DNA of 32,674 nucleotides, taken from contig JBCCZL010000024.1 in the NCBI GenBank assembly GCA_039187775.1, positions 1-32,674 of the forward strand, written 5' to 3'. The position numbers and the translations under genes were made by a program. The notes beneath the pieces were generated by a model. It was not told the DNA's origin. It worked only from the letters and a program-made list of their open reading frames with translations, and did not search any database. This DNA is from Myxococcota bacterium. Its GTDB lineage: Bacteria > Myxococcota_A > Polyangia > Polyangiales > JBCCZL01. Of this stretch, positions 2,835-30,742 are shown in pieces. Positions within the stretch are counted from its first letter, which is position 1. Each line of letters starts with the position of its first letter.

Positions 2835-5342
2835 CTAGGGAACGACACTGGAGCAGGTCGCGTTGCATCGGTCGCCGCTCGTCGTGTTCCCGTCGTCGCA
2901 GACCTCGCCGCCGTCGAGGATGCCGTCGCCGCAGATCGGGACGGTGCAATCGAGGCGGCAAGCGGAGGGCGTATTGAATGCGCGAATCGTCAACGGCTGG
3001 GTGAGGTTTAGGCCGCTGAAGATGCTGCCTTCGTTCACCCAGCGCCAGTTCGAGATCCCCATCATGAACGATGGCGTGAGGGTGATCGTCCAGTTGCCGG
3101 GCAGGCTCAACCCTTGGGCGATGCCTCCATCGGTATTGGCGCGGAAGAACCAGCTGCCCGTAAACGTGCCGGCGCCGGTCTGTCGGAACTCTCCCGCATC
3201 GTCCGACAGAGACGCGATCGTCCCCGCGGGTACTCCCGTGAGCGTCATGTCGACCGAGGCGGTCGACTGGAAGATGCCCGAGGTGTCGAAGTCGATGCCG
3301 TGGACGAGGAAGAGACTGAGTGTCCCGGTGTTGAGGTCACGGTAAATAAAGATGTTGCTGAGCCCCGCCTGCTCAAACCCAGTGTGCGCGCTCGCCGACA
3401 CGAGGGCGTAGAACACCGTCGACGAGGTAAACCGCTGGAGCGGGTCGACCGCGGCGATCACTGTACCCCCCTGGCTGATTTCGATCGCCGGACGGTCGGT
3501 GTTCATCGCTCCGAGATCGCACTGCTCGCCCATTTCGACGATGCCATTGCCGCAGAAGTCGAGCTCGATGTCGCAGCTCGGAGTGCACCCGTCGCCGGGA
3601 AGCAGGTTGCCATCGTCGCAGGCTTCCATGCACTCGACGACCCCGTTGCCGCAAGCCTCGACCACGCAGGTGGCCGAACATCCATCGCAGGCGGTGGTGT
3701 TGCCGTCGTCGCAGGTCTCGCTGCACTCGACGACACTGTTGCCGCAGCCCTCGGTGGCGCAGGTCGCCGAACATCCATCGCAGTCGATGTTGTTCCCGTC
3801 ATCGCAGGTCTCGCCCGCGTCGATTCGCCCATCGCCGCAGCGCGGCGGAGGCGGTTCGTTGGTGCACGTCGGAGAGCAACCGTCGCCCGGGAGCAGATTT
3901 CCGTCGTCGCACTCCTCCATGCATTCGACGCGCGCATTTCCGCAGACCTCGCGGTCACACATCGGCGAACAGCCATCGCAGGCCACTGTATTGCCGTCGT
4001 CGCACACTTCGCCGGGGTCGACATTTCCGTCGCCGCAGCGGGGCGGAGGAGGCTCGATATTGCACATCGGGTCGCAGCCGTCGAGGGGTCGGTTGTTCCC
4101 GTCGTCGCACTGCTCCGAGCACTCCACGACCCGATTGCCGCATCGTTCGACCTGGCAGGCCACATCGCAGCCGTCGCACGCGGTGAGGTTTCCATCATCG
4201 CACTGCTCCCCCGGATCGATCCGGCCGTCGCCGCAGCGGGGGGCTTCGAGGATGCACATCGGATTGCAGCCGTCGCCTCCAACGTTGTTTCCGTCGTCGC
4301 ACTCCTCAAAGCATTCGAGGGTGCCGTTGCCGCAGGACTCGGTCGTGCAGATCGGCGAGCAGCCATCGCACGGGAAGTTGTTCCCATCGTCGCACTGCTC
4401 GGGCATCTCCAGCCGGCCGTTGCCGCAGCCAGCGAGCTCGATGGTGCACGTGCTCGAGCAACCGTCGTTGTCGATGAGGTTGCCGTCGTCGCACTGCTCG
4501 ATGCAATCGATTAGGCCATTGCCGCAGGACTCCGACGTGCAGAATGGCGAGCAGCCATCGCAGGGGAGATTGTTGCCGTCGTCACACATCTCGCCGGGCT
4601 CGACTCGCCCGTCGCCGCAGCGCCCCGCCTCGATCTCACACAGCGACGAGCACCCGTCGCCGTTGAGAAGGTTGCCGTCGTCGCATTCTTCTTCGCAGTC
4701 GATGATCCGATTGCCACAGGATTCGAGCGTGCACGCCGGCGAACATCCGTCGCAGGGTCGGTTCCCGCCGTCATCGCATTGCTCCCCGGGGTCGAGGACG
4801 CCATTGCCGCAGCCCGGGGCTTCGACTGTGCACGTGTCGCTGCACCCGTCGCCGCTCAGGAGGTTGCCGTCGTCGCAGCCCTCGAGGCAGTCGAGGACCC
4901 GGTTGCCGCATTCCTCGTTGATGCAGTCGCTCGAGCATCCGTCGCACGCTTCCAGGTTGCCGTCGTCGCACTGTTCGCCGGGATCGATACGGAAGTCCCC
5001 GCAGGCCGCGATTTCGAACTGGCAGGCCGACGAGCATCCATCGCCGTTGACCCGGTTGCCGTCGTCGCAGGCTTCCCCGGCGTCGAGGATCCCGTCGCCG
5101 CAGTTTTCGAGCTCCAGCCGGCATGCCATGTCGCAGCCGTCGCCGTTGTTCGTGTTCCCGTCGTCGCACTCTTCGCCTGCCTCGACGATGCCGTTGGGGC
5201 ACCCGACGGCGCTGTCGGTCCCCGAGTCGCGAACCGTGGCGTCGCGGGCAGTGCTATTGAGCGTCGACCGGCCGCACGCGGGCAGGAGGCCGAGGGCGAG
5301 AAACGCGACGGCCAGGGGGCCGACGAGGCGTCGAGAGAACAT
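2835..5342 (-). CDS. secreted lipoprotein with about 21 Myxococcus cysteine-rich repeats (Myxo_disulf_rpt / TIGR02232-type)
   Basis: 835 aa. The signal peptide plus lipobox is MFSRRLVGPLAVAFLALGLLPAC. About 21 units of roughly 36-40 aa of the form CGNGxxExGEECDDGNxxxGDGCSxxCxxE follow. The C-terminal region of about 230 aa is non-repeat and ends with one more repeat. Confidence 0.9.
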   Translation of the reverse strand: MFSRRLVGPLAVAFLALGLLPACGRSTLNSTARDATVRDSGTDSAVGCPNGIVEAGEECDDGNTNNGDGCDMACRLELENCGDGILDAGEACDDGNRVNGDGCSSACQFEIAACGDFRIDPGEQCDDGNLEACDGCSSDCINEECGNRVLDCLEGCDDGNLLSGDGCSDTCTVEAPGCGNGVLDPGEQCDDGGNRPCDGCSPACTLESCGNRIIDCEEECDDGNLLNGDGCSSLCEIEAGRCGDGRVEPGEMCDDGNNLPCDGCSPFCTSESCGNGLIDCIEQCDDGNLIDNDGCSSTCTIELAGCGNGRLEMPEQCDDGNNFPCDGCSPICTTESCGNGTLECFEECDDGNNVGGDGCNPMCILEAPRCGDGRIDPGEQCDDGNLTACDGCDVACQVERCGNRVVECSEQCDDGNNRPLDGCDPMCNIEPPPPRCGDGNVDPGEVCDDGNTVACDGCSPMCDREVCGNARVECMEECDDGNLLPGDGCSPTCTNEPPPPRCGDGRIDAGETCDDGNNIDCDGCSATCATEGCGNSVVECSETCDDGNTTACDGCSATCVVEACGNGVVECMEACDDGNLLPGDGCTPSCDIELDFCGNGIVEMGEQCDLGAMNTDRPAIEISQGGTVIAAVDPLQRFTSSTVFYALVSASAHTGFEQAGLSNIFIYRDLNTGTLSLFLVHGIDFDTSGIFQSTASVDMTLTGVPAGTIASLSDDAGEFRQTGAGTFTGSWFFRANTDGGIAQGLSLPGNWTITLTPSFMMGISNWRWVNEGSIFSGLNLTQPLTIRAFNTPSACRLDCTVPICGDGILDGGEVCDDGNTTSGDRCNATCSSVVP
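3520..5210. repeat. tandem DNA repeats of about 110-120 bp encoding the Cys-rich repeat array
   Basis: The periodic protein repeats are mirrored in the DNA (recurring gtcgtcgca / gccgttgccgca strings). They give rise to long spurious ORFs on the opposite strand (3114..4514, 3499..5394). Confidence 0.8.
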
Positions 5343-9352: not shown

Positions 9353-10444
9353 ATGCGAGTCTTTCCTCAGGCCTTCATCTTTCTGCTCGCACTGCTTGGC
9401 TGCGGTGGTGACGATTCCGCGTTGGATGACGCCGCGGTGGCCGATGCGTCGACGGACCTCACCGACGCGGAAACCCCCATGACGGACAGTGCGGGCGACG
9501 GCGCGGATGGAAGCGATGGCTCGGACAGCCAGGCGCCGAATTGCGAGCCGGCGACCGTGACGCCCGGACCCACCATGGCCACACTGAGCTTCGGCGCCGC
9601 CGACCGCCAATACCTCCTGTACATTCCGACTTCCCTCGTTCAGCCGGCCGCCCTCGTGCTCGCATTCCATGGCGGCGGAGGGGCCGGAAGCATTGGCTTG
9701 CTTCAGGGCACCGGGCTCCGCGCCAAAGCCGATGAGGAGGGGTTCGTGCTCGTTGCGCCAAGCGGTATCGGCGGGTTCTGGAGCGCGGGGTCCTGCTGTG
9801 GCCCGCAGGCGGTGGATGATGTCGGGTTTGTTCGCGCGGTGATCGACGACGTCGCCAGTCGGGTGTGCCTCGATCCGAGGCGAGTGTTCGCGACCGGTCA
9901 CTCGAATGGCGGCATGATGGCGTATCGGTTGGCCTGCGAGCTTTCGGACCGAATCGCGGCGGTAGCTCCGAGCGCGGGTTATCTCGTGAACATCAACAAT
10001 GGGCGCCAGGGTGCGCCAGTGGAACCACCGACCACGATCTACGAGTGCCTACCCACGCGGCCCGTGCCGGTGCTCACCGTCCACGGCACGGGAGATACCT
10101 GCGCGCCGATCGAGGGAGGCCCCGTCACATGTGGGGGCACGCTCCTTCGACCGCCCGTCGCCCACGGCGTCGACATTTTTCGCGACCGCAACGGCTGCAC
10201 CGGCGAAGGAACCGTGAGTTTCGAGAATGGGGCCGCCCGATGTCTCAGCTACGCACCGTGCCGCGAAGGGTCCGACGTCGTGTACTGCACCGTCGAAAAC
10301 GGCGGCCACACCTGGTTCGGCAATCTCGGAATGACCAATCCCGAAGAGTTCGGCGGCGTCTACTCCGACGACCTCATCATGCAAAACGCCGCCTGGGACT
10401 TCTTCGCGTCCCACCCCATGGCGCAACCCGGGGGGACGAGGTAA
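9353..10444 (+). CDS. secreted alpha/beta-hydrolase esterase, poly(3-hydroxybutyrate) depolymerase family (LpqC-like)
   Basis: Start chosen at ATG 9353 (MRVFPQAFIFLLALLGCGG, a lipoprotein signal). LVLAFHGGGGAG...FVLVAPSG...VFATGHSNGGMMAYRLA carries the GHSNGG nucleophile elbow typical of esterase_PHB / COG3509. The last codons and the stop (GGG ACG AGG TAA) lie inside the terminal repeat of the MITE-like element. Confidence 0.75.
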   Translation: MRVFPQAFIFLLALLGCGGDDSALDDAAVADASTDLTDAETPMTDSAGDGADGSDGSDSQAPNCEPATVTPGPTMATLSFGAADRQYLLYIPTSLVQPAALVLAFHGGGGAGSIGLLQGTGLRAKADEEGFVLVAPSGIGGFWSAGSCCGPQAVDDVGFVRAVIDDVASRVCLDPRRVFATGHSNGGMMAYRLACELSDRIAAVAPSAGYLVNINNGRQGAPVEPPTTIYECLPTRPVPVLTVHGTGDTCAPIEGGPVTCGGTLLRPPVAHGVDIFRDRNGCTGEGTVSFENGAARCLSYAPCREGSDVVYCTVENGGHTWFGNLGMTNPEEFGGVYSDDLIMQNAAWDFFASHPMAQPGGTR

Positions 10445-10634
10445 TTTTTTTCCTCACCACGATCGCTAAACCCTCGAAATTACAGCGCCCGCGTTTCGCT
10501 CATCGAGGACTCGCGACGCGTTCCTGAACCCATGACTTTTCGGGTGTTGGGCGCACGCCGATCCGCCGAATGCTGAAGCGAGTGATTCCAGGTATTTGGC
10601 GATCGTGGTGAGGAAAAAAATTACCTCGTCCCCT
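10432..10634. mobile_element. MITE-like element of about 203 bp with 35-bp perfect terminal inverted repeats (GGGGACGAGGTAATTTTTTTCCTCACCACGATCGC)
   Basis: Left end 10432-10466 and the reverse complement of right end 10600-10634 are identical over 35 bp. Similarity continues imperfectly for about 20 bp inward (CGATCGCTAAACCCTCGAAATTACAG versus CGATCGCCAAATACCTGGAATCACTC). There are no ORFs inside. A related unit pair recurs at 30283-30870. Confidence 0.55.
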
Positions 10635-10683
10635 GGAGTTGTCCTTCGATTGGGTGGCGCGGGTCTTGCTGATGGGGAGGCCG

Positions 10684-11355
10684 ATGCGGATTCGTGACAC
10701 ATGTTGGCTCGCGCTTTTGGCTGGTGCGGTGGCTGGGTGCTCGGCCGCCCATGGGCGCGGTGATGGGGACACCGAGGAGGTCGATGGGCAAGTTCCGGAT
10801 GCGAGAATTCCGGATGGGTCCACTCCCGACCGTTTGGTGCCGGATGGCAGTCCCGATGGGAATGCGTTGGTCTCCACGTGCAGGAGCAGCGCGGACTGTC
10901 CGTCGGACCTCATCTGTTCTTTGTTTCAACCGATCTATCGCTGCGGAGGTCCGGCTCCGTTCCTCGCCTGTTATCCGGGGGATGATCCGCGAGGGGAGCT
11001 CATCGACGGCGAGCTGGACCGGAGATGCGAAGAAGGGGCTCTCTGCGACCCCGACGACTGCGGCGGAAGTGCCTGCGTTCCGGATTGCCGAGGCGAGGAC
11101 GGGGCGTGGTGCGGTCGTGGTCGGACCTGCGACGACACGACGGGCCTGTGCCGGACCGTCACCTGCGACCGCGATCGCATTGCTTGCCCAGACCACTTTC
11201 GCTGCGCGGCGCCGGGGGTCGCCACTGACCTGCCCTCCCGGTGCCAACGCATTCCTTGCTCGGCCGACCGGGACTGCGCGGGAGGGGTCTGTGCCGAGGG
11301 GCGATGTTTCGCGGCCGCGGGACTGTGCGCCGAGCTGACTCCTCCGCCTCCCTGA
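10684..11355 (+). CDS. cysteine-rich secreted lipoprotein (hypothetical)
   Basis: ATG at 10684 preceded by GGGGAGG (short 3-nt spacer). Alternative starts are TTG 10639 and ATG 10672. MRIRDTCWLALLAGAVAGC is a lipoprotein signal. The mature part is Asp/Gly/Cys-rich (about 24 Cys) with no Myxo-repeat periodicity. Confidence 0.6.
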   Translation: MRIRDTCWLALLAGAVAGCSAAHGRGDGDTEEVDGQVPDARIPDGSTPDRLVPDGSPDGNALVSTCRSSADCPSDLICSLFQPIYRCGGPAPFLACYPGDDPRGELIDGELDRRCEEGALCDPDDCGGSACVPDCRGEDGAWCGRGRTCDDTTGLCRTVTCDRDRIACPDHFRCAAPGVATDLPSRCQRIPCSADRDCAGGVCAEGRCFAAAGLCAELTPPPP

Positions 11356-11390
11356 CGCGATGCTTCGAATGCCCGCTCCGACGGGCTAGC

Positions 11391-12359
11391 CTACGGCTCG
11401 CGCGGGAGGTCCATCCGCGGCCCCCACTCTGCCCAGCTTCCGTCATAGAGGCGCACATCCGAGAACCCGAGCGCCCGGAGTACGACGTACGAGACCGATG
11501 CCCGCGAGCCGGTCTGGCAGTAGGTGACGATCGTCTCGCTTCGGTCGAGGCCAGGATAGAGCGCGTCGAGCTCGTCCGTGGAGCGGAGTTCTCCACTGGC
11601 CACATTGAGAGTCCAGTCGACACTGAGTGCGGTTGGAAGGCGACCTGCCTCGTACTCGCCGCTCGAGCGTGCGTCGATCAGATGGAGGCCAGGGCCCGCG
11701 AGCCGTCCGGTAATAAACTCGACGTCGACCCGCCGGTCTTCATCGAGGCCGACCGCGTACTCGCTCGGTGTTGCCCCGGCCGAACCCATCTCCATCGCAC
11801 CCCCTCCTGCGGTCCAGGCGCTGAAGCCCCCGTCGAGGAGTGCCACGCTTTCATGGCCGAAGTACTCGAGCGTCCACACCACTCGGGCTGGCGTCGTGGT
11901 GGTGTCGGGCCCGTACACCACGATCGCTGCATCGCGGCGGAGTCCGGCCGCGCGAAACACCATCTCAGCGGTGGCCTGATCGACCACCTGTCCACCGACG
12001 CCATTGACGGTGGCTCGGAGATCGGCCGCGTCGACCACCGCCGCACCTGGAATATGGCCCTGCGCGAAGGCCACATCTCCGCGCGCATCGACGACCTGAA
12101 GATTCGGCTCGTCGATCCGCTCCGCGAGCCAGGCCGCGTCGACGACAATGTCCGCGCCACCGCAGAGTAGGCCTGCGGGGCATGTGCCCACGGCCTCCCC
12201 GTCGGTGCGCGCGTCCGGGATGGAAGTATCGGCGAGCGATGCGTCGGCGGCCCCATCGACCGGCGAGGCGTCGGAGAGTGAGGCGTCGGGCGTCGAGTCC
12301 GGATCATCGTCGCCGCAGGCGATCAGGACTAGGAGGGGAACAATTACAAGCCGGGTCAT
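11391..12359 (-). CDS. tandem-rhodanese sulfurtransferase lipoprotein (thiosulfate / 3-mercaptopyruvate sulfurtransferase-like)
   Basis: 322 aa. MTRLVIVPLLVLIACGDDD is a lipoprotein signal. There are two rhodanese-like domains, and the C-terminal active-site loop is TYCQTGSRASV (CxxGxR). Confidence 0.8.
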   Translation of the reverse strand: MTRLVIVPLLVLIACGDDDPDSTPDASLSDASPVDGAADASLADTSIPDARTDGEAVGTCPAGLLCGGADIVVDAAWLAERIDEPNLQVVDARGDVAFAQGHIPGAAVVDAADLRATVNGVGGQVVDQATAEMVFRAAGLRRDAAIVVYGPDTTTTPARVVWTLEYFGHESVALLDGGFSAWTAGGGAMEMGSAGATPSEYAVGLDEDRRVDVEFITGRLAGPGLHLIDARSSGEYEAGRLPTALSVDWTLNVASGELRSTDELDALYPGLDRSETIVTYCQTGSRASVSYVVLRALGFSDVRLYDGSWAEWGPRMDLPREP

Positions 12360-12440
12360 AGGTTCTTGGAGTCACGTCGAACCCAAATGGATTCGAAAAA
12401 AATCGCGCGCTGGGCTTTTGGGGACGAACCGGAAGAACCG

Positions 12441-12686
12441 CTAGCCCTTGTCGAGCGCTTGGCGAAGGGTCTCGAGGGCTTCCGCGGACGGTTCGGGGAC
12501 GGGGAGCCGACGCAGCGAGGTGACCAGGGCCCCGAAGTCGGCACCAAAACGCTGGCAGTTTGTGCAGTGGGCCAGGTGAACCTCGACCCGGGCGACGACT
12601 GCGGGAGGGAGATCGCCCTCGAGATAGTCGCTTAGCCCGTCCAGCACTTCGGAGCAGGAGATCCCACCGTCTGTGCGCTCATTCAT
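12441..12686 (-). CDS. zinc-finger anti-sigma factor (ZAS / zf-HC2 type)
   Basis: 81 aa containing HLAHCTNCQ (the HxxxCxxC ZAS motif). It overlaps the upstream ECF sigma gene by 8 nt, the typical sigma/anti-sigma coupling. Confidence 0.75.
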   Translation of the reverse strand: MNERTDGGISCSEVLDGLSDYLEGDLPPAVVARVEVHLAHCTNCQRFGADFGALVTSLRRLPVPEPSAEALETLRQALDKG

Positions 12687-13272
12687 TCAAACCACCCTTC
12701 TCCCGAGCGTTTCGACGTAACGTGGCCGCAAGGCGGAGTCGCGCACGATGAAGGCGGCTCTTCGTCGCCGCGAGGTCGAGGCCGAGAACTTCTGCGGTCT
12801 CCGGACCGGTAAGCTGCTCCAAATCCCGAAGCACGATCACCGCCTGCTGTTCCGAGGGCAGTTCGGCGAGAGCCCCAAGAAGGCTGGTGCGGCGCTCGGC
12901 GATCGTCGCCAGCGACTCGGGATCAAGCACTCCCCAACCCGCCTGCGCACCCAGCTCAAAGAGTGAAGGCACCGGCTCTTCGCGGGTCTGGCGCTTCGCC
13001 ATCCGAAGCGCGGTATTCCGCGCAATGGTAAGCAGCCAGGTGCGGGCGGACGCGTCGCCGCGAAAACTCTTGGCCCCCTGATACGCGGTGAGAAATGTCT
13101 GCTGGAGTGCATCCTCCGCGAGCGCGTGGTCGCGAGTAAACACCCTCGCCATTCGCAGTACCGCGCCGGCATGTCGGGTGACGAACTCCGCGAAAGCGGA
13201 ACGATCGCCCGCGGCGGTGCGACGGAGGAGCTCCTCATCGGAGCTGGCCTTCGGCTGGGCTTCTCCGGCCAT
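12679..13272 (-). CDS. ECF (sigma-70 family, group 4) RNA polymerase sigma factor
   Basis: 197 aa. Region 2 is FAEFVTRHAGAVLRMARVFTRDHALAEDALQQTFLTAYQGAKSFRGDASARTWLLTIARN. Region 4 is LPSEQQAVIVLRDLEQLTGPETAEVLGLDLAATKSRLHRAR. Confidence 0.85.
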   Translation of the reverse strand: MAGEAQPKASSDEELLRRTAAGDRSAFAEFVTRHAGAVLRMARVFTRDHALAEDALQQTFLTAYQGAKSFRGDASARTWLLTIARNTALRMAKRQTREEPVPSLFELGAQAGWGVLDPESLATIAERRTSLLGALAELPSEQQAVIVLRDLEQLTGPETAEVLGLDLAATKSRLHRARLRLAATLRRNAREKGGLNE

Positions 13273-13316
13273 CCACAGTTTCTATGGAGCCAGCCCACGC
13301 AATTCCAAGGTTGCGG

Positions 13317-14111
13317 CTAGCCCGCCTTCGCCACTGGAACGAATTTCCGCCCGAATACCCATTCGGAGTCGGTGGAGCGGGCCTTTTGGAACCGATAGCG
13401 GTCCTTTCGAAAATCCTTAAGACCGTCGCATTGGTCGATTCGCTCTTCGATGATGAAGCGCGCCATCGCACCGCGCGCATACTTCGCCATGAAGCTCACG
13501 ACATTGGGCTTCTTCCCGTCTTTCCAATCTTCGAACACGATCCGAAGCACCGGTGTGTCGAGCTTCTTCGCCTGGGTCGCCTTGAAGTACTCGGCGCTCG
13601 CGAGGTTCACGAGGGTTGGGTCCCCGTGATCGGCGACCACGCCCGCGATCTGTTTCCGGATCCGATCGTCCCAGTACGCGTAAAGGTTCTTGCCCCGTCG
13701 TGTCGACAGCTTGGTGCCCATTTCAAGCCGGTAGGGCTGGATCCGATCGAGGGGTCGAAGCAGACCGAAGAGCCCCGATAGAATGGCCACCCGGCCCTGC
13801 GCCCATTTGAGCGCCTCTGTGTCGAGGGTTCGCGCCGAGAGCCCTCGGTACACATCGCCGTCGAACATGAGTGCGGCTGGCATCGCGTTCTTGTCGGTAA
13901 ACGGGAGCTCGAAGCTTCGAAAGCGGTCGTAGTTCAGCTTCGCGAGATCTGGGCTGATGCTCATGAGCTCACGGACCTTGGTCTGACTCAGCCCCCGGGT
14001 GGTCTTCATCAGATTCGCCGCGTCCTTCATGAGCGCGGGCTCGGTGGTCGATACCGAAATCGGCGGAGGCGTCAGGTCGAGGGACTTTGCGGGGGACAGA
14101 ACAGCGAGCAT
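13317..14111 (-). CDS. yaaA: YaaA-family peroxide stress protein (UPF0246 / DUF328)
   Basis: 264 aa opening with MLAVLSPAKSLD, the hallmark YaaA N-terminus, at the family-typical length. Confidence 0.85.
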   Translation of the reverse strand: MLAVLSPAKSLDLTPPPISVSTTEPALMKDAANLMKTTRGLSQTKVRELMSISPDLAKLNYDRFRSFELPFTDKNAMPAALMFDGDVYRGLSARTLDTEALKWAQGRVAILSGLFGLLRPLDRIQPYRLEMGTKLSTRRGKNLYAYWDDRIRKQIAGVVADHGDPTLVNLASAEYFKATQAKKLDTPVLRIVFEDWKDGKKPNVVSFMAKYARGAMARFIIEERIDQCDGLKDFRKDRYRFQKARSTDSEWVFGRKFVPVAKAG

Positions 14112-14240
14112 GGTCTTTCGAGATTACCTTTGAGAACCAGCGGGCCAAAGGCCGAACATGTATGCCCGCGACTTCTCGCACGGTGGGTGCCCATGAGCAG
14201 TGGCGTGAGGGAAAAACCGTGCAGCGGACGTGGTCCCGGG

Positions 14241-16406
14241 CTAGACAGCCCGGACTTCGACGGGGATTCCGTTGAGGGCGGCGTTGCCGCTCAGCTGATC
14301 GAGGTACTCAGGATCGGTGAGGTCGTTGACGCTCTGTCCGGCGTGGGCCTCGGCGACCTTCTGCCGCGTGCCGCCGACGCCATGGCCGAACCCGTGGGGC
14401 AGTGAGACCACGCCCCTCATGACTGCGTCGGTGCTCTCGAGAGTCACCCGGAGCTCTCCGGCGGCGGAGCGCACGACGACTTCGTCGCCCTCCTTTGCGT
14501 CGAGACCGGCGACGTCTTCTGGGTGCATCAGCAAGCTGCAGCGATTGTTGCCACCGACGAGCTTCTCAAGATTGTGCATCCAGGAGTTGTTGCTTCGAAG
14601 ATGGCGCCGCCCGATAAGAACGAACCCGTTGGCCGCGCTATTGGTTCGGGCTTTGGGGAGGCTGTCTCGGAGCCGCTGCAGATCGGCGACGATCTCCCCG
14701 GGGACGAGGTCGATCGAGCGCCCCGCCGGCATTCGATGAAGGAGACACGGGCGAAGCGGACCAAGATCGATCCCGTGCTCGCTCTGGCGGAGGCGTCGAA
14801 GGCTCAGCCCGTGGCGTGGCGGACTGAGACGGAGTCCGTAGGGCCCGGCGCGAAGGCCCGCATCGAGCAGCCGCTCCGGTCCGAGCTTGCGAAGGCCTCG
14901 GGCTTTCCAAGCGCCGCTTCGGTCCCCGCGAAGCTCGAGCAGGCGCTCCTGGAGGCGAAGAAGGGTGTCCCAGTCCGGCCGGGTGTCCCCGCGCGGCTCG
15001 AAGAGCGGCGGCGAGTACTTCGCGACGTTTCGAACCGCGAGCAGGTTAAACGCCGGGTCGAAGTGGCCCCGTTCGAGCGGTGAACTTGCCGGAAAGATGA
15101 TGTCTGCGTGCCGGGTGGTTTCGTTCAGGTAGATGTCGAGGCTCGCCATAAAGTCGAGCCGACCGAACGCCTGCTGGAGGCGCTGTCCGTTCGGCGTCGA
15201 AAGCGCCGGGTTGCCCGCGATCGTGAGGAGCCCCTGGATCTGTCCGGGGCCGTCGGTTTCGATCTCCTCGGCGAGGACCGACACGGGAAGCTCACCGCCA
15301 AACTCCGGAAGTCCGCGGACGCGGCTTTGCCACCGGTCGAAGTGACCGGGGCCCACGCCCATTCCGCCAACGGCTTTGAGGGTATCGAGCGCGGGCTCGG
15401 TGAACATGGCGCCGCCGACGCGATCGAGGTGTCCGGTGCAAACATTGAGCGCATTGATCGCCCATTGGCAGAGCGCGCCAAACTCCTGCGCGCAGGTGCC
15501 GAGGCGGCCATAACAGACGGCGGCGGGCTCCTTGCCGAACTCGTGGGTAAGCCGCTCGATGGTGGCTTCGTCGATGCCGGTGTGCGTCGCGGCCCAGGCC
15601 GGGGTGAACTCCTCGACGATCTTCCGGAGCGCGGCGAGGCCCTTCGTGCGGCTCCCGAGGTGGTCGAGCCGGTCCAGCCCTTCACGGAACACCACATGAA
15701 GCATGGCGAGGAGCAGGAGCGCATCGGTACCCGGTCGAATGAAGTGATGCTCGTCGGCGAGCTCGGCGGTCTCGGTGCGCCGCGGGTCGATCACGACCAG
15801 CTTTCCGCCGCGTTCCCGCAGGTCCCGAAGTCGCTTTTTGATTCCCGGGGCGCTCATCAGGCTGCCGTTCGACGCGGCCGGATTGGCTCCGAGCATCAAG
15901 AAGTGCCGCGTCCGATCGATGTCTGGAATCGGAAAGAGGAGCTGGTGGCCGAACATGAAGAACGACGCGAACATGCTCGGGAGCTGATCCACGGACGTCG
16001 CCGAGTAGCGGTTCTTGGTGCGGAGCGTCCGGAGAAACAGCGGACCGAAAACCAGGGCGCCGAAGTTATGAACCACCGGGTTTCCGATGTAGACCGCGAA
16101 GGCGTCGCGTCCGTGGCGTTCCTGGATGCCAAAGATCCGCTGCGCGGTCTCGTCGAGCGCTTCGTCCCACGCCACCGGCTCGAACCCAGTCCGCGTCTTG
16201 CGAAGCGGGTGGGAAAGCCGGTCCGGGTCTTCTTGAAGGTCCTTGAGCGCCGCGCCCTTGGGGCACAGGTAACCGCGGCTCAACGGATCGTCGTCGTCAC
16301 CTCGAATCGAGATCACCCGCTCCGCGGTGGCTTCGATGGTCAGGCCGCACATCGCCTCGCAGAGATTGCAGGTCCGATAGTGGGTGCGTGGCTGAGAGCG
16401 GGGCAT
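14241..16406 (-). CDS. molybdopterin (Mo-bisPGD) oxidoreductase, FdhF/YdeP-like
   Basis: The N-terminal 4Fe-4S motif is HYRTCNLCEAMCGL...RGYLCPKG (CxxCxxxC...CPKG), followed by a long MopB-type catalytic domain. The ORF extends to 16514, but I prefer ATG 16406 (MPRSQPRTHYRTC...). The true start is uncertain. Confidence 0.8.
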   Translation of the reverse strand: MPRSQPRTHYRTCNLCEAMCGLTIEATAERVISIRGDDDDPLSRGYLCPKGAALKDLQEDPDRLSHPLRKTRTGFEPVAWDEALDETAQRIFGIQERHGRDAFAVYIGNPVVHNFGALVFGPLFLRTLRTKNRYSATSVDQLPSMFASFFMFGHQLLFPIPDIDRTRHFLMLGANPAASNGSLMSAPGIKKRLRDLRERGGKLVVIDPRRTETAELADEHHFIRPGTDALLLLAMLHVVFREGLDRLDHLGSRTKGLAALRKIVEEFTPAWAATHTGIDEATIERLTHEFGKEPAAVCYGRLGTCAQEFGALCQWAINALNVCTGHLDRVGGAMFTEPALDTLKAVGGMGVGPGHFDRWQSRVRGLPEFGGELPVSVLAEEIETDGPGQIQGLLTIAGNPALSTPNGQRLQQAFGRLDFMASLDIYLNETTRHADIIFPASSPLERGHFDPAFNLLAVRNVAKYSPPLFEPRGDTRPDWDTLLRLQERLLELRGDRSGAWKARGLRKLGPERLLDAGLRAGPYGLRLSPPRHGLSLRRLRQSEHGIDLGPLRPCLLHRMPAGRSIDLVPGEIVADLQRLRDSLPKARTNSAANGFVLIGRRHLRSNNSWMHNLEKLVGGNNRCSLLMHPEDVAGLDAKEGDEVVVRSAAGELRVTLESTDAVMRGVVSLPHGFGHGVGGTRQKVAEAHAGQSVNDLTDPEYLDQLSGNAALNGIPVEVRAV

Positions 16407-16535
16407 ACCCGAGGATAGAGAGTTGCCCCCGGCGCGGGAAGCGATCGGAAAGGCCCAAGCTGTCGTGCCCGTTCTGGAAACCGATTGGAAACCCGCCGTC
16501 CTCGAAGTGGTCACTTGACGCGAGGAGCGCTTCGT

Positions 16536-17063
16536 TCAGCGGTCCTCCACGAGGGCCGCGAGTTCTTCGACGTGAGCATCGTGTGCGCCAAGGGAGCGGA
16601 GGGCCTCGCGGAGCCGAAGAAGGTACTCGTCGTTGGGTCCGCTCGGCCCCTTGGACGCGCGAATGTGCGACGCCATCGTCTCTGGTGGGGCGGGGCCGAG
16701 ATAGTGCGGGTTTTCCGTGGTTGCGCGATAGATCAGGCCAGAGACCGTTTCGGCGGGGTCCTCGAGTTCGAGGGGAAGCCACTGCCGGTCGTAGCCGCCC
16801 TGCTCTCGATGATCGAGTTGGGCGAGCACCCCCTCGGCGTCTTCGCTCCCGACGAGGTACGCGGCGCCAACCGTCGAGTCTCCGGTGGCCTCGAGAAGCG
16901 TTACCACCCGCCCCGGGGCTTCGGGAACGCCTCGATGATCGGGCGAGCCCTGATAGAACCGCCGGACAAATCCGTGAAGAACCGCACGGCGGCGGTCGAC
17001 GAATGGAAAGTCGGGCCGCCAGATAAGCGAGCCGTAGCCAAAGATCCATACCGCCGCGTGCAC
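16536..17063 (-). CDS. chaC: ChaC-family gamma-glutamylcyclotransferase
   Basis: The VWIFGYGSLIWRP motif (YGSLxW) is followed by the HGFVRRF..Q core. Start taken at GTG 17063 (VHAAVWIFGYGSL). The ORF extends to 17264 with a hydrophobic, signal-like N-terminal extension that may or may not be translated. Confidence 0.65.
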   Translation of the reverse strand: MHAAVWIFGYGSLIWRPDFPFVDRRRAVLHGFVRRFYQGSPDHRGVPEAPGRVVTLLEATGDSTVGAAYLVGSEDAEGVLAQLDHREQGGYDRQWLPLELEDPAETVSGLIYRATTENPHYLGPAPPETMASHIRASKGPSGPNDEYLLRLREALRSLGAHDAHVEELAALVEDR

Positions 17064-17378
17064 CGTTCGGGGATACCTATGGGGGCGACTCTGTCCATCC
17101 TTTGTCGCGCGATCGCGTACTGCATGCGCTTGGGTGGACTGCTTAGGATCGCGTTGTGCAAGATGGGCTGCCGCGACTCCACTCAAGGCCACAAGCGTGA
17201 GCACGACCGAGAGGGTCGATAGCGTATGTAGTTCAAGAAGCACCTCCTTCCGGTGGCACTCCAAGCCCGTGCCATCGACGTTTCCCGACAGGTGGCGACC
17301 CGGCGATGCCAGGGCGCGTCCTCTTGGCGGTGTGGCGGTCGACCACTGCCAATCGGGCAGGCGTCCGACGGATCTCTG

Positions 17379-20300
17379 CTATAGCTCGTTGTCGGCGCGG
17401 AGCTTGGCGTCGACGCGGCGAATCAGCTCGAGGAGCTGCATCACGTGCTCGTGGAGAGCCTTGGAGTCGGCGAGATCTTGGTTGGCCCGCTGGACCAGGG
17501 GGAGGAGCGAGCGCTCGACCACCTGAAACTGCTGAGCGACGAGGGCACTGACGTCCTGGTTTGGAGCTGCCCCTTGAAGGCCAGGAGCGTCGAGGTGCAC
17601 TTCAACCTTCGGGTGCTGAAGCGCAATGAGGGCCTGCTCGAGTCGGGAGAGCTGGGGCGCGAGGGCTTCCACCAATGCGCTGTGCCCGTTGCCGTTCGGC
17701 TCGGCCGCGTGGGCTTCCTGTGCCTCGCGTCGCGCGGCTTCACGACGCTCGGCGTTTCGAACGGCTTCTAGCCGTTGTTCTTCGGCGCGTCGCTTGTCGG
17801 CCTCGGCCTGTGCCCGGGCCGAGTCCTCGACTGCCTTGCCGAGCGCCTCTCGAATGGAGGAGAGCTCCTGCCCGAGCACCGACAGCGTTCCCGTGACGCG
17901 GGTCACCGGGTCGTCCTCGGCGCCGCCCATGCTCTTTTGCCGGCGAAACTCGGCCTTGATCTCCTCCCAGCGCGCCCGCTGCTCATCGGTCATGCGGCCG
18001 CGCATTTCGGCGAGCTTAAGGAGATTCTGCTCCGCGCCGGTGGTGAGGGTCTGTGACTCCGAGGCGTAGTGGTCGTCGATGAGGCGCTCGAGCTCCTCGT
18101 CATTCATTGCCGAGACCACCTTTTCGGAGAGCTTGTTCATGTTCCGGTAGCTCCCCTGGAGCTTAAACGGGGGCTCGGTTCGAAAACTGTCCTCCTGGGA
18201 CGCCGACTCGATATACTTCAGGTTTACCGCGAGAAGCACGTCGCGGACTTTGAAGAGCCGCTCGAAGACCGCCGTCATCTCCGAGAGCTCCGCCCCCGAA
18301 TAGCCGTAGCTCAGATCGGTGGTCGCGACCTGCTCGCCCTCCGCCATCTTGATCACCTTGTACACATCGCCCTGCTCCCGCGTCGCGAGCGGGGAGAGCG
18401 CCGCGTTCGAGGTGAGCGAGTTCTCGATGTAGCTCAGCGCGAACTGCTGGTCCTTGCCCTCCAAGATATCGCCGAGATTGTAGGTGTCCGCGCGGTTCGC
18501 GAGCATGTCCGGGATCTGGAACTTATCGCCGCTCTCGGTGTACGGGTTTCCCGCCATCACCACGCAGAACTTCTTGCCGCGAAGGTCGTACGTTCGGGTC
18601 TTTCCTTTCCACACGCCCTCGACGCGACGCTGAGCGTCGCAAAGGCTGATGAATTTCTGAAGTAGCTCGGGATGGGTGTGCTGGATGTCGTCGAGATAGA
18701 GCATCACGTTGTTGCCCATCTCGAAGGCGAGGTTGATCTTCTCGACCTCTTGCCGAGCGGTCGCGTTCGGCGCCTCGCCGGGGTCGAGGGAATGCACCCC
18801 GTGCCCCAGCGAGGGACCGTTCACCTTCATGAACACGAGTCCGAGCCGGTTCGCGATGTACTCCATCAGCGTGGTCTTGCCGTAGCCCGGCGGCGAAATG
18901 AGGAGGAGGAGACCCATGAGATCGGTCCGCTTCCCCGCCCCCGCGGCGCCCATCTGCTTGGCGAGGTTGTCGCCGATCATCGGCAGATATACTTCGTTGA
19001 TGAGCCGGTTTCGCACAAACGAGCTCATCACTTTTGGCTTGTACTCCTCGAGTCGAAGCCGCTCGCGGTTGTCTTCGAGGAGCGAATGTCGAGCGTTTCG
19101 GTACTCGCGAAACGCCGGCGCGCGACGGTGGGCAAAGTCGCCGAGGCGCTCGAGGAACTCGTCGAGGCGAAGCTCCATCGTTCGGTTACTGATCCGCGGA
19201 TGTTGGCCGAGGAGCCCTTCGACCTTGATCGCCGTAAGCGCCTCGCTGAGATCGCGATCGAGACTCTCGGTCAAGAGGAGCCCCGCCGCCTCTTCGCTCG
19301 CATGGGCCACCGCCTGAACCTCTTCTCGGTCGCTCGCCCGCACGAACGCCTCCACCCACGCTCGGGTCAGCCGAATACGGGCTCCAAGATTGCCTCCGAG
19401 GCCCGCTCGGTCGTCGTCGAATGCCCGCCGGGTGCCCGCCACGTCGAGATGTGAAAGGAGCAGATCGCGGAGCTTGGCCGCATCGTGGCTCGTGACGAAG
19501 CGTGGTCGTTCCTCGCCGATCTCGTCGACCAGGTAGCGTCCGGCGAGAAGGCATTCCTCTTCGGAGGCTTCGACGCTGCGTTCTTGAAAGAACGCGTGAA
19601 TCTGGGTGCCAAGCTCCTCGCCAAACGCCGCGCGCTCGCCGGTGGGCCCGAACGCCTCGGTGAGTCGGCCGAGGCTGTATGCCCGTTGGTGGAGCTCCGC
19701 GCGAAGCGAGCCGTCGGAAAGGTGCGCCCAGTACAGGCAGCCAAGGGTCCGCGGCCCCGGCGGATAACGAAGGAGTGCCGCCGAGTCCCGGAGCACGAGA
19801 ATCTTCTCGAGGATCAGGGCCGCGTCGGCGTCGTGCACCCCTCGCTCGTAGCCCTCGTCGTAGCGATCTGCGGCCACCTTTCGGACGAGTCCGAGCAGGC
19901 CCCCGTCGTTTCGCTCCGCTTCGTGGAGGGCCGCAACGGAGAGCTGCTGGCTCTCCGCCTCCGCCGAAAAGAGGATGCTCGCGGCGAGATATTCGCCCCG
20001 ATACACCTCGCGGGTTTCGGAAATGTACTGCTGGTCCCAGAACGGCTCGGTCTTTCGAAAGTCCGCGTCCTCGACGAGTTCGTAGAAGTTCGTTCCCGTG
20101 AGGTGGAGCGCCATCTCGCCTTCGCGGGGCACGAGCGATAGCTCGAGGGGCTGGGTGTTCACGGTGAAGCGATGTTTGCCGAACTTGATGAGGTCTTCGC
20201 CTTCCTCGAAGAGCTCGAGCTTGTCCCGCATCGCCCGGAGCGAGTCCTGTCGGGCGGTCTTGAGGCGGGCTTCGACCTCCTCGGCCTTGACCGAGTCGTC

Positions 20301-27056: not shown

Positions 27057-27899
27057 CTAAAACCGATAGCTCAGACCGACGCTTAGCTCGGGGGTAAAGC
27101 CGTAGCTCTCGATCGCGTCTTCGGTTTCTCGTTCGACCTGTGCGGCGAGCTCGTCGTTTTCGAGCTCGACGTTCACATCCGCCGAAACCGTGTGGGTCCA
27201 GCCGACGGCGAGGCGAAGTCCAAGATGGTCGCCGAGCGCGATTCGCCAACCGATCTGTGCGCTCACCGCGTGAAGACGAACCGAAATCGGAACTGCCGCA
27301 AGCCCAAGGTTGGGGGCGCCGGGGACAAAGGCCTCTGCAAAGGTGTTCGGGTCGATGTCGCTTCCCCCGCCGATCAGGGTGTAGCCGCCGCCGATTTCAA
27401 AGCCGCCGCCGAGCGAGAGTCCCACCATCCACCGGACGTTCCAAAACCCGCTGTCGGTCAGCTCGTTGACGATCGGGTCGTAGTCATCCGGGATCGCGCC
27501 AGTGTCGCCGAGAACGCCGGTCACCACGCCGACGAAGGAGCTCGGGACATAGCCGACCCCGAAGCGCCCGAACAACGCAAACGGAGTGGTGAGCTGTGCT
27601 TCCAGCGAGGGTCCCAGCGGAACGGAAAGACGCGCGCCGAGTTCGAAGTCCCAACCGGAGCCGGAAGAAGACGACGAAGCCGCGGGCGCGGAGGACGATA
27701 TGGCGGAGGACGATGTGGCGGAGGACGATGTGGCGGAGGACGATGTGGCGGAGGACGATGTGGCGGATGAAGCCGCTGGTGCGGAGAGCTCACCGCCGGC
27801 TTCGGAGGTTTGCGCCTGCACTTCGCGGGCCGAGATTGATGACCCCATCGAAACGCACAGAGCGAAACAAACAAACGCGAACGTTTTCCGAGTTGTCAA
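27057..27899 (-). CDS. outer-membrane beta-barrel protein with Ser/Ala/Thr tandem repeat
   Basis: It ends ...ELSVGLSYRF with a C-terminal Phe, the OMP signature, and has alternating Gly/aromatic beta-strand patterns. The putative signal is MTTRKTFAFVCFALCVSMGSSISA from TTG 27899 (the ORF extends to 28001). The (SSSAT)5 repeat is encoded by 15-bp tandem repeats. Confidence 0.6.
   Translation of the reverse strand: MTTRKTFAFVCFALCVSMGSSISAREVQAQTSEAGGELSAPAASSATSSSATSSSATSSSATSSSAISSSAPAASSSSSGSGWDFELGARLSVPLGPSLEAQLTTPFALFGRFGVGYVPSSFVGVVTGVLGDTGAIPDDYDPIVNELTDSGFWNVRWMVGLSLGGGFEIGGGYTLIGGGSDIDPNTFAEAFVPGAPNLGLAAVPISVRLHAVSAQIGWRIALGDHLGLRLAVGWTHTVSADVNVELENDELAAQVERETEDAIESYGFTPELSVGLSYRF
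27688..27768. repeat. 15-bp tandem repeat (GCGGAGGACGATGTG) x5, in-frame within the OMP gene
   Basis: There are five near-perfect tandem copies. The first is the variant ...GATATG, followed by a degenerate copy. They encode SSSAT units on the minus strand. Confidence 0.8.
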
Positions 27900-28047
27900 C
27901 GGAACCCTGCCTTTCAGCACAGAAACCGATTCGGCCACTTTTCTACCGCCGCCGATAACGAGTCTGTAGGGTGAGTTGCCTCTCACCGGCAGGGGGTTCA
28001 TCTATTTTTTGCTAACCCCGTCGAAGCAGGAGCTCTAGTGTGGTCAC

Positions 28048-28415: not shown

Positions 28416-29132
28416 ATGCGCTGTCTATCCCATCGTCGGATTTGGCCGTTTGTTGTCGCGGCAGCACTCGTGTCGTTCAGCCCGTCGTTCAGCGCGGCCC
28501 AGGACGCGGAGTTTCAGATCTGGAACGCGATCGCGGCGACCGCTCGCGTCGCGCCGGTCGAGCCCACACCGATGCTGTGGCTCGACACTCATGCACGCCG
28601 CGGAAACGGAGGCACCGTCCTGATTTTCCGACCGGCGGTCGGCCTTGCGATTGCCGATTGGTTGAGCGTGTGGGCGGGGTATGCCTGGGTTCCGGTGTTC
28701 TCGGACCAGAGCGCGGATCCTGTCCATGAGCATCGCGCATGGCAGCAGGTCATTCTAAAACACACCACGAGTTTTCGGCTGTCGTTTCAGTCCCGCACGC
28801 GCTTCGAACAGAGATTTAGTGAAGCGGGAGACGATGTGGGGTTTCGGCTCCGCGAGTTTGTTCGGGTGTCGTATCAGCCCACCGACAGCTTTCCGATGGG
28901 CGTGGTGGTTTGGGACGAGCTCTTTATTGGGCTGAACGACACCGACTGGGGGGCCCCGGGTGGGGTCGACCAGAACCGAATTTTCGTGGGACCGTTTCTC
29001 AAGCTTGCCCCGTTTGCGCGCCTGGAGATGGGGTATCTCGCGGCCTACATCGATCGAGAGACCGACACGTTGGCCCACGTGCTTGCGATCAACCTCTTTA
29101 TTTCGGGAGGGCCGCGCTCTCCCGCGCCTTAG
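28416..29132 (+). CDS. hypothetical secreted protein (possible beta-rich / DUF2490-like)
   Basis: Start chosen at ATG 28416 (MRCLSHRRIWPFVVAAALVSFSPSFSAAQD, a signal peptide). It is W/F/Y-rich with alternating polar/hydrophobic stretches. The family assignment is tentative. Confidence 0.55.
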   Translation: MRCLSHRRIWPFVVAAALVSFSPSFSAAQDAEFQIWNAIAATARVAPVEPTPMLWLDTHARRGNGGTVLIFRPAVGLAIADWLSVWAGYAWVPVFSDQSADPVHEHRAWQQVILKHTTSFRLSFQSRTRFEQRFSEAGDDVGFRLREFVRVSYQPTDSFPMGVVVWDELFIGLNDTDWGAPGGVDQNRIFVGPFLKLAPFARLEMGYLAAYIDRETDTLAHVLAINLFISGGPRSPAP

Positions 29133-29170
29133 CGCTCGACGTCGGTCAACCAGCTGGCTACACCCGCCGA

Positions 29171-30220
29171 ATGCGGGTTCCCAAGGCCTTCTTCGAGCTG
29201 GCCTACGAGTTCGATCGAAGCCTTCGCCGTGCCCGGGCCACCGTCCAGCAGCAGTTCGGAGTTCGCCCGCCGCTCCGGATCGTTCCCTATCGAGGCTACG
29301 GCACTCGATCGCGCCTTCGGGTGCGCGCCCGGGTCCTTCTCGACCGAGGTGAACTTCCGCCCGAACTCGAGCGGGGAATGGTCGACGGGATTCGGGCGAC
29401 GGTGCAGCGCTTTCGAACCGAGCAGATCGCGCACTGCCCCCTGACCGTGCGGTGGGAAACGAAGACGGTGCATGCGCAGACCGATGAGGAGGGGTTTCTC
29501 GACGAGCTTCTCGCGCTTGAACCCCCGGAGGAAGCGGGCTGGCGGTCGGTCGAGCTCTCGCTTCGTGAAGACGATGGTGAGGAGACTCGAGCCCTTTGCC
29601 GGGTGGTGGACCGGTCACCCCGGATGATCATCACGGACATCGACGACACCTTGATCGACAGCCACATCACGAACCGGCTTCGACGGGCCGAGGCGATGTT
29701 TCTCGGCGAAGTGCGCCGGCGTCGCCCCTTTCCGGAAACGGCCGAGCTTCTGCAGGCGCTGGCTCGGGGTGCCGAGGAGCCGAACCCCGTGTTCTACGTG
29801 TCGAGCAGTCCTTGGAATCTTCACGACCATCTCGACCACTTTCTTTCGGTCCACGACTTTCCCCTCGGGCCGATCCTTCTCCGCGACTGGGGGCTCCATC
29901 GCGATGGCTTCGCCCCGGATGGGCGCCATGGGCACAAGCGCGAGAAGATCGAAACGATCCTCGCGGATCTCCCAGCTCAGCGGGCGATCTTGATCGGCGA
30001 CAGCGGGCAGCGCGACGCGGAGAACTATCGCGATCTGGTCTGGTCCCAGCCCGAGCGAATCGCGGGGGTGATGATTCGTCGCGTGGCGATGCGCCCCGGG
30101 CGGGTGCACCGTTACGCGTCGTGGACAGACGAGCTTCGGGCGACCGGCATTCCGTTCCTGGAGTTCACCCACAGTCGCGAGGCGTTCGAGTTTGCCCGCC
30201 GCAATGGCTGGGTTCCATGA
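29171..30220 (+). CDS. App1-like / DUF2183 (HAD-type DxDxT) phosphatase, putative phosphatidate phosphatase
   Basis: Start at ATG 29171 (MRVPKAFFELAYEF). IITDIDDTLIDSHI (the DxDxT catalytic motif) and FYVSSSPWNLHDHL (S-x-SPW) match the App1 catalytic-domain pattern. The long ORF from 28910 overlaps the previous gene and is not needed. Confidence 0.7.
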   Translation: MRVPKAFFELAYEFDRSLRRARATVQQQFGVRPPLRIVPYRGYGTRSRLRVRARVLLDRGELPPELERGMVDGIRATVQRFRTEQIAHCPLTVRWETKTVHAQTDEEGFLDELLALEPPEEAGWRSVELSLREDDGEETRALCRVVDRSPRMIITDIDDTLIDSHITNRLRRAEAMFLGEVRRRRPFPETAELLQALARGAEEPNPVFYVSSSPWNLHDHLDHFLSVHDFPLGPILLRDWGLHRDGFAPDGRHGHKREKIETILADLPAQRAILIGDSGQRDAENYRDLVWSQPERIAGVMIRRVAMRPGRVHRYASWTDELRATGIPFLEFTHSREAFEFARRNGWVP

Positions 30221-30282: not shown

Positions 30283-30352
30283 GGCGGTTGAGTGATTTCA
30301 GGCGGTTGGCGATCGTGGTGGGGCAAGAAATTACCTCGTCCCCGTTTGTTGC
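30283..30352. repeat. palindromic repeat unit (inverted copy of the MITE terminal unit)
   Basis: GAGTGATTTCAGGCGGTTGGCGATCGTGGTGGGGCAAGAAATTACCTCGTCCCCGTTTGTTGC matches 32/35 to the reverse complement of the 10432 unit, plus an extended match (GAGTGATTYCAGG..TTGGCGATCGTGGTG) to the 10564-10634 arm. It contains the hairpin GCAAGAAA-N14-TTTGTTGC. Confidence 0.6.
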
Positions 30353-30358
30353 TTTTTT
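30323..30358 (+). terminator. candidate intrinsic terminator formed by the repeat hairpin plus a T6 tract, downstream of the App1-like gene
   Basis: GCAAGAAA ttacctcgtccccg TTTGTTGC TTTTTT: an 8-bp (7/8 paired, AU-rich) stem, a 14-nt loop and T6. The stem is weak for a GC-rich genome. Confidence 0.3.
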
Positions 30359-30442
30359 GACGGGTTGGCTTGGTTCGTAGTACCGCGGAGTTGGCGGGCG
30401 GCTTGTTAACGACTCTGGCCGTCGAGCTTGGGGGGCCTTGAT

Positions 30443-30448: not shown

Positions 30449-30453
30449 TGCGT

Positions 30454-30723: not shown

Positions 30724-30742
30724 CCCATCGACCCGCCACAAA

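Follow-up and report, generated by a model that had tools for sequence, protein, structure and literature searches.

The DNA analysed here is a stretch of 32,674 nt (the window) of contig JBCCZL010000024.1, assembly GCA_039187775.1, a metagenome-assembled genome of an uncultured member of the Polyangiales in the Myxococcota, and the region of interest lies at positions 11391-14111. Four co-directional genes occupy it on the minus strand, namely yaaA, the gene of an extracytoplasmic function (ECF) sigma factor, the gene of a small zinc-binding anti-sigma (ZAS) protein, and the gene of an exported lipoprotein with two rhodanese domains. An earlier note on this DNA had located all four and had read them as a single stress module. 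The reading frames are indeed there as described, but comparison with related loci points to a narrower unit: the sigma factor, the anti-sigma and the rhodanese target are supported as belonging together, and yaaA is not. At a probability that we put at about 0.6, the sigma/anti-sigma pair would form a two-gene switch with one local target, the rhodanese gene, which it would drive by way of a near-leaderless transcript. The features of the locus are as follows.

13317-14111, minus strand: yaaA (DUF328, peroxide-stress protein family), identified by Pfam PF03883, NCBIfam and PDB matches
12679-13272, minus strand: ECF (group 4) sigma factor, 197 aa (Pfam Sigma70_r2 and Sigma70_r4_2)
12441-12686, minus strand: soluble ZAS anti-sigma, 81 aa (zf-HC2, 3.3e-9)
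12654-12656, minus strand: codon of C11, fourth ligand of the anti-sigma (direct sequence reading)
12555-12578, minus strand: codons of the ZAS motif H37-x3-C41-x2-C44 (direct sequence reading)
12389-12394, minus strand: predicted -35 element GAATCC (exact match and top two-block matrix match)
12368-12373, minus strand: predicted -10 element GACTCC, ending 8 nt 5' of the rhodanese ATG at 12359 (same motif match)
11391-12359, minus strand: exported tandem-rhodanese lipoprotein, 322 aa (two rhodanese domains and a lipobox)
12315-12326, minus strand: rhodanese lipobox codons (sequence pattern)
11499-11519, minus strand: codons of the rhodanese catalytic loop C281-QTGSRA (alignment with sulfurtransferases)
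13286-13291, minus strand: orphan -10-like hexamer GGCTCC, 13 nt 5' of the sigma ATG (-10 matrix block)
14241-16514, minus strand: molybdopterin oxidoreductase gene, upstream of yaaA
16536-17264, minus strand: ChaC gene, further upstream

The sigma factor has only two domains in its 197 residues, Sigma70_r2 (2e-16, residues 30-97) and Sigma70_r4_2 (3e-14, residues 130-181), and has neither region 1.1 nor region 3, the domain composition of the ECF (group 4) class; the general sigma70-ECF model TIGR02937 scores 80.1 bits against a cutoff of 42.9. All NCBIfam ECF equivalog models stay below their cutoffs, the best being PRK11922 (126.5 bits against 204), and the nearest of 1293 homologues at E<=1e-10 is 59% identical. 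The stop of the sigma gene and the start of the anti-sigma gene overlap by 8 nt (ATGAATGA), a count that the earlier note had right, and the identical overlap recurs in the orthologous pair of locus L082. With this overlap, and with the two genes adjacent in 33 other loci, the pairing that had been proposed holds: the gene arrangement marks sigma and anti-sigma as cognate partners whose translation is coupled. A conserved pattern, LGxxAG(W/F)(G/A), is found in the linker that joins sigma regions 2 and 4 (residues 107-114; 12931-12954, minus strand) in 15 of 15 aligned orthologues. Linkers of ECF sigma factors are usually not conserved.

Loci with relatives of the sigma factor were drawn from a genome collection, a metagenome collection and two targeted look-ups, and 33 loci from Myxococcota were counted as orthologous, meaning that a sigma orthologue (45-60% identity) is followed directly by an anti-sigma orthologue. 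The conserved partner of the pair, present in 32 of the 33, is a YgaP-like transmembrane protein of about 70 aa (Pfam PF11127/DUF2892, 5e-20), whose gene lies directly upstream of the sigma gene in most of these loci. In many Polyangiales loci the downstream side also holds genes for a VTT/DedA protein, for a DUF6279 lipoprotein and for an AhpD-like CMD protein that has a CxxC motif; in L082 a sulfite-oxidase/MsrP-fold molybdoenzyme stands downstream instead of these. None of the cargo genes (YgaP-like membrane protein, VTT/DedA, DUF6279, CMD/AhpD) was found when they were sought in the window. A rhodanese gene adjoins the pair in a single orthologous locus, L011, where the order is motif (described below), YgaP-like gene, rhodanese lipoprotein, sigma, anti-sigma. 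The genes for YaaA, the molybdopterin oxidoreductase and ChaC are neighbours in 0 of the 33 orthologous loci and in 0 of the 162 ECF-bearing loci examined, and from this pattern they look like bystanders rather than members of the regulon. The earlier note had enlisted the oxidoreductase and ChaC genes to extend its redox theme; they do lie upstream on the same strand, but the part given to them in the module does not survive the comparison. Gene adjacency alone is thus a misleading guide to the boundaries of this module.

The first gene of the operon is preceded, in more than 20 of the 33 loci, by a bipartite motif with fixed spacing, (T/C)GA(A/G)TCC(TTTT)-N15-G(A/G)CTC(T/C), laid out as ECF promoters are. 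In L082 it occurs twice, upstream of the YgaP-like gene and again upstream of the sigma gene, where it is an autoregulatory promoter with its -10 hexamer 12 nt before the sigma ATG. In two other loci (L003, 3841-3900; L008, 1028-1087) a second, weaker copy, GAGTCC-N15-GACTCC, stands in tandem 33 nt upstream of the main motif. The helix of sigma region 4.2 that is predicted to recognise the -35 element, KSRLHRARLRL, is common to 15 of 15 aligned orthologues, the window protein included, and segments of region 2 are likewise common to the 15, so the same promoter specificity is to be expected throughout. The form that the earlier note had suggested looking for, GGAAC-N16-CGTC, is not the motif of this sigma family, which is GA(A/G)TCC-N15-G(A/G)CTC(T/C).

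In the window this motif stands in front of the rhodanese gene. The pattern GAATCC-N16-18-CTCY has one exact match, at 12368-12394 on the minus strand, within the gap between the anti-sigma and rhodanese genes (81 nt long, one less than had been noted); 0.81 chance occurrences of the exact consensus would be expected per window. A two-block weight matrix, trained on the other loci only and with the window excluded (training sites score 19-35 bits), gives 23.0 bits at the same position, which is its top match in the window; 0 of 300 simulated windows, amounting to 19.6 million positions, reach 23 bits, and their maximum is 21.5. The second-best match (29870-29899, plus strand, 12.7-14 bits) was rejected as a promoter, as it lies inside the long open reading frame (ORF) 28910-30220 and has a poor -35 element. 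A first, 35-nt matrix that took in the spacer columns was also discarded; it was overfitted to closely related training sites and gave the window site 11.5 bits against a shuffle maximum of 12.0. Upstream of yaaA, of the sigma gene, of the oxidoreductase gene and of the ChaC gene the best combined scores are -0.8 bits or lower, compared with 23 for the rhodanese site, and the earlier expectation of ECF promoters before yaaA or the sigma gene fails on this point. A scan of 10500-17600 for sigma-70 promoters and terminators gave no promoter-like site, nor any terminator separating the genes discussed, and a gathering-threshold scan of the whole window against Rfam gave no match.

The placement of the predicted -10 element leaves no room for a Shine-Dalgarno sequence before the rhodanese ATG, and without room for a ribosome-binding site the transcripts from such promoters would be leaderless or nearly so. 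From the recurrence and position of the motif we infer that it is the promoter of this sigma factor and that the rhodanese mRNA is leaderless. Directly 5' of the -35 element there is a run of seven T (GATTTTTTTC-GAATCC; 12395-12404, minus strand), which may serve as an UP-like A/T tract or else be the U-tract of a weak terminator that ends the sigma/anti-sigma transcript. We considered an intrinsic terminator in the gap before the rhodanese gene and rejected it: the weak stem with its seven U is no more stable in folding than shuffled sequence (z = 0.01).

The same arrangement recurs at rhodanese genes that do not adjoin such a pair. Ten orthologues of the rhodanese (49-61% identity) were found on other contigs, all with a lipoprotein signal peptide and 0 of 10 next to an ECF sigma gene, and three of them (52-57% identity) carry the motif, ending 7-8 nt before the ATG: L167 (16.9 bits), L168 (26.4 bits) and L169 (21.1 bits). 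L169 and L082, the latter with its orthologous sigma/anti-sigma pair, both belong to assembly GCA_039186435.1. A fifth case of a -10 element separated by 8 nt from an ATG precedes the gene of a secreted 310-aa protein in L095. None of these sites leaves space for a ribosome-binding site. With a family-specific motif in front of the rhodanese gene both here and at orthologues elsewhere, control of the rhodanese by the pair, as the earlier note had proposed, is very probable. The motif-bearing tandem rhodanese of L168 (1-8005) stands in what may be called a rhodanese island, amid four more genes with rhodanese domains (126, 134 and 135 aa and a DUF4395-rhodanese fusion), and there a weaker motif-like site (12.4 bits) on the opposite strand faces the 135-aa gene.

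In the predicted target, both rhodanese domains (Pfam 4.2e-36, two stretches) are covered by alignments to E. coli SseA (1urh, 1.1e-34) and to thiosulfate sulfurtransferases. The catalytic cysteine is kept, since Cys281 in the C-terminal domain aligns with the catalytic cysteines of SseA and of 8k55. The active-site loop, CQTGSRA, is nearer to CRIGERS of the 8k55 sulfurtransferase, which likewise has Arg at +5, than to CGSGVTA of SseA. Two more specific identities were tried and rejected: the SseA 3-mercaptopyruvate sulfurtransferase equivalog (NF008557, 128.4 bits against a cutoff of 250; the loop is not of SseA type) and ExtH, the rhodanese-like lipoprotein of selenite and tellurite reduction (NF040901, 68.5 bits against a cutoff of 200). 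At the N-terminus, MTRLVIVPLLV-LIAC-GDD, the residues L12-I13-A14-C15 are a lipobox by match to the pattern [LVI][ASTVI][GAS]C, and comparable lipoboxes are found in the orthologues. The description as a tandem-rhodanese lipoprotein, with two domains, the lipobox LIAC and catalytic Cys281, is thereby borne out. A lipoprotein of this make-up, with the catalytic cysteine intact, points to sulfur transfer in the cell envelope, probably by an enzyme of the thiosulfate/persulfide type.

The anti-sigma is recognised by zf-HC2 (37.1 bits against a cutoff of 22.2) and has the motif H37-LAH-C41-TN-C44, to which C11 is added. These four residues (C11, H37, C41, C44) are invariant in a 73-sequence family alignment, whose consensus around the motif is AHLxGCxxCxRFG, as well as in all 16 of 16 orthologues. 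Hydropathy averaged over 19 aa does not exceed 0.68, which speaks against a membrane helix, and an AlphaFold2 model (mean predicted local distance difference test score, pLDDT, 95.6) is a mainly helical bundle. A Foldseek comparison of this model with the PDB lists the anti-sigma domains of RsiW, DdvA, MucA and RslA as its top matches, none of them significant (all E>0.9). In an alignment with RsrA (PDB 5frf), C11 falls on the Cys of the segment DCSEILD, and in its size of 81 aa, in having no membrane helix and in having an equivalent of C11 the protein agrees with anti-sigmas of the RsrA/RshA type. ChrR-type membership was rejected (NCBIfam ChrR model, 16.1 bits against a cutoff of 124.5). 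A word-indexed homology search with the 81-aa sequence returned the query alone; an exhaustive HMMER search gave 1202 clusters at E<=1e-3, the best-scoring of which are mostly 80-95 aa long. Some of the relatives found (P0262, P0329 and P0348; 267-278 aa) have the domain at the C-terminus and may be sigma/anti-sigma fusions, and others of 300-450 aa (P0245, P0251, P0258 and others) contain two to five tandem copies of it.

Taken together, these observations suggest the following scheme. The 8-nt gene overlap would cause sigma and anti-sigma to be made together, and in an unstressed cell the anti-sigma would keep the sigma factor sequestered and inactive. Inactivation of the anti-sigma would free the sigma factor to take RNA polymerase to GAATCC-N15-GACTCC in the 81-nt gap. 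Since the -10 element ends 8 nt from the ATG, transcription would start at about 12359, at or within a few bases of the rhodanese start codon, and the product would be the exported, lipid-anchored tandem rhodanese. In relatives among the Myxococcota the same sigma family would drive the YgaP-like membrane protein from the same motif. As the sigma gene has no recognisable autoregulatory promoter, its own transcription would probably come from read-through of yaaA or from an unrecognised (housekeeping) promoter; yaaA may be tied to the unit only as this source of read-through.

Several points weigh against this scheme. The promoter assignment is a prediction from comparative genomics. An autoregulatory promoter, typical of ECF systems, is missing 5' of the sigma gene, where the best score is -6.9 bits; the orphan block GGCTCC found there (TGGCTCCAT, 13284-13314, minus strand) reaches 8.1 bits for its -10 part and -15.1 for the -35 block, and is possibly the remnant of an autoregulatory promoter or a weak form of one. 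The weak stem in the gap, folding no better than shuffled sequence, makes read-through into the rhodanese gene possible. The closest sigma relative, at 59% identity (L081), has no clear motif, and seven of the ten non-adjacent rhodanese orthologues are without it, so the link to the rhodanese is restricted to some lineages; the rhodanese promoters that do bear the motif may share a single origin instead of being independent events. It could be argued that the site before the rhodanese gene is a chance match, or belongs to another regulator, and that the rhodanese is an unrelated neighbour, as the exact consensus is expected almost once per window and most rhodanese orthologues have no ECF neighbour either. 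We consider this very unlikely. A score of 23 bits is not reached at any simulated position, the site lies on the correct strand inside the short gap beside the cognate sigma, the same motif stands 7-8 nt from the ATG at three orthologues, and it also precedes the operon of L011, in which the rhodanese is included. The opposite extension, in which yaaA, sigma, anti-sigma and rhodanese make up one thiol/peroxide-stress module, with ECF promoters at yaaA and at the sigma gene and with the oxidoreductase and ChaC genes extending it, is in our view just as improbable. Six genes that run in one direction, set apart by short gaps (44, 81 and 129 nt) and free of terminator-like sites in between, do invite it, as does the -10-like hexamer 13 nt before the sigma ATG, and YaaA is a genuine member of its peroxide-stress family, as had been claimed (PF03883, 6.7e-79, 265.2 bits; NF002542, 334.9 bits against a cutoff of 278; PDB 5caj, 4e-60). 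Against it stand the absence of YaaA, the oxidoreductase and ChaC from every orthologous and every ECF-bearing locus, the matrix scores at or below -0.8 bits upstream of these genes and of the sigma gene, and a sole strong site that faces the rhodanese only.

Within the two-gene switch, the least certain point is the trigger. Our best guess, at no better than roughly even odds, is that a thiol-reactive species (an oxidant, an electrophile or sulfane sulfur) acts on the zinc-bound cysteines; the guess is made because the anti-sigma has no other sensor domain, and as it has neither a membrane segment nor an extra domain, no candidate sensor is encoded here other than the anti-sigma domain. The earlier note had called the HxxxCxxC motif redox-sensing and RsrA-like. 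The zinc motif is present, but the label overstates the case: class I anti-sigma domains have this zinc site in general, and ChrR, RsiW and RsuA, which share it, do not respond to thiol oxidants (PMC3177212). Redox sensitivity in RsrA is reported to be set by E39, E40, L45 and E46 (PMC3177212), of which the window protein has 0 of 4 (A39, H40, Q45 and R46 instead), and the RsrA equivalog model TIGR03988, for the mycothiol-system anti-sigma-R, gives 28.1 bits against a cutoff of 62.5. Both results count against a thiol trigger, and redox sensing by this anti-sigma is not established. The wiring could then be the same with a zinc site that is structural, as in ChrR, RsiW and RsuA, the sigma factor being released by proteolysis, by a partner such as the YgaP-like protein of the relatives, or by a specific ligand. 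The missing determinants, the insensitive anti-sigmas with the same motif and the membrane partner gene that adjoins the pair in 32 of 33 relatives all fit this alternative, which we regard as possible though doubtful: no YgaP-like partner was found in the window, an 81-aa protein with neither extra domain nor membrane helix leaves its own domain as sole candidate sensor, and the family shows no variation at C11, the partner of C44 in the switch disulfide of RsrA.

The closest functional analogues of the proposed switch are SigR-RsrA of Streptomyces coelicolor and SigH-RshA of Mycobacterium and Corynebacterium, which likewise consist of an ECF sigma factor and a small soluble cytoplasmic anti-sigma with a C11/H37/C41/C44 zinc site. 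Indeed the zinc ligands and switch cysteines of RsrA carry the identical residue numbers (PMC3177212), and SigH/RshA of M. tuberculosis directly regulates cysA3, a gene for a tandem-rhodanese thiosulfate sulfurtransferase, and moeZ (PMC4803200). Unlike these systems, the window, which belongs to a myxobacterium without the mycothiol system, has an anti-sigma that lacks the redox-determinant residues and falls below the TIGR03988 cutoff, a promoter of the form GAATCC-N15-GACTCY, an exported lipoprotein as target and no autoregulatory promoter that could be seen. RpoE-ChrR (Rhodobacter sphaeroides, Shewanella RpoE2 and Pseudomonas syringae PSPTO_1043) also joins a ZAS-type anti-sigma to an ECF sigma factor, and its promoters, TGATCC-N16-CGTA (PMC5507510, PMC4336711), resemble the present motif in the -35 element (TGATCC and (T/C)GAATCC), whereas the -10 elements differ (CGTA and G(A/G)CTC(T/C)). 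The ChrR family model spans 216 positions, compared with the 81 aa of the window protein, which is an anti-sigma domain only. In Shewanella, RpoE2/ChrR drives a periplasmic glutathione peroxidase, PgpD, an antioxidant enzyme (PMC4336711, PMC5507510).

A further comparison is with E. coli YgaP, whose two halves correspond to the targets of this sigma family: the YgaP-like transmembrane domain in 32 of 33 loci, the rhodanese in the window and in L167-169, or both in L011. The window rhodanese has two domains and is lipid-anchored and exported, whereas YgaP has a single cytosolic rhodanese domain and a membrane domain for which thiocyanate export has been proposed (PMC4730233). E. coli ygaP is under the sulfide-responsive repressor YgaV (PMC9774250) and not under an ECF sigma factor, unlike the targets of this family. 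A precedent for an extracytoplasmic rhodanese is the periplasmic PspE of E. coli (PMC2593051). By analogy, the pairing of YgaP-like domain and rhodanese suggests a theme of sulfur species or cyanide. A more speculative reading, which we hold to be unlikely, would make this Myxococcota ECF/ZAS family a specialised detector of cyanide or reactive sulfur species, in place of a general switch for disulfide stress. On that reading the zinc-bound cysteines of the minimal anti-sigma would be modified by sulfane sulfur or a similar thiophile, and the freed sigma factor would induce a split 'YgaP' system with accessories (envelope rhodanese, YgaP-like membrane protein, AhpD-like CxxC protein and sulfite-oxidase/MsrP-fold molybdoenzyme), partly through leaderless mRNAs. 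If this were true, the pair would be, to our knowledge, the first of the ECF/anti-sigma kind tied to the detoxification of sulfur species.

Pairs of an ECF sigma factor and a ZAS anti-sigma are a well-known type of stress switch, and the presence of such a system is in itself unsurprising. What is new is a testable regulon for an uncharacterised myxobacterial subfamily, with a promoter motif and a predicted leaderless rhodanese target, and the repeated association of the sigma factor with both halves of a YgaP-like sulfurtransferase system. Confirmation would place envelope rhodaneses, and with them the widespread DUF2892/YgaP membrane domain, in a physiological context; neither is well understood at present.

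Other features of the window lie outside the region discussed above. Two elements resembling miniature inverted-repeat transposable elements (10424-10641 and 30293-30858), neither with an Rfam match, have inverted repeats of about 60 nt that share the same terminal sequence (..GGCGATCGTGGTG.GG..AAATTACCTCGTCCCC), with 98 nt between the arms in the first and 448 nt in the second. The second also contains three tandem copies of a palindromic unit of 28-36 nt, GCAACAAACGGGGACGAGGTAATTTGTTGC, at 30733-30828. An ORF of 835 aa (2835-5342, minus strand) consists of 192-nt (64-aa) units, about 8-10 in tandem, that are rich in aspartate and cysteine and resemble the MopE-type putative metal-binding repeats of L011. 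Finally, a 15-nt unit (GGAGGACGATGTGGC) is present in about five copies at 27663-27770, within the ORF 27057-28001 on the minus strand.

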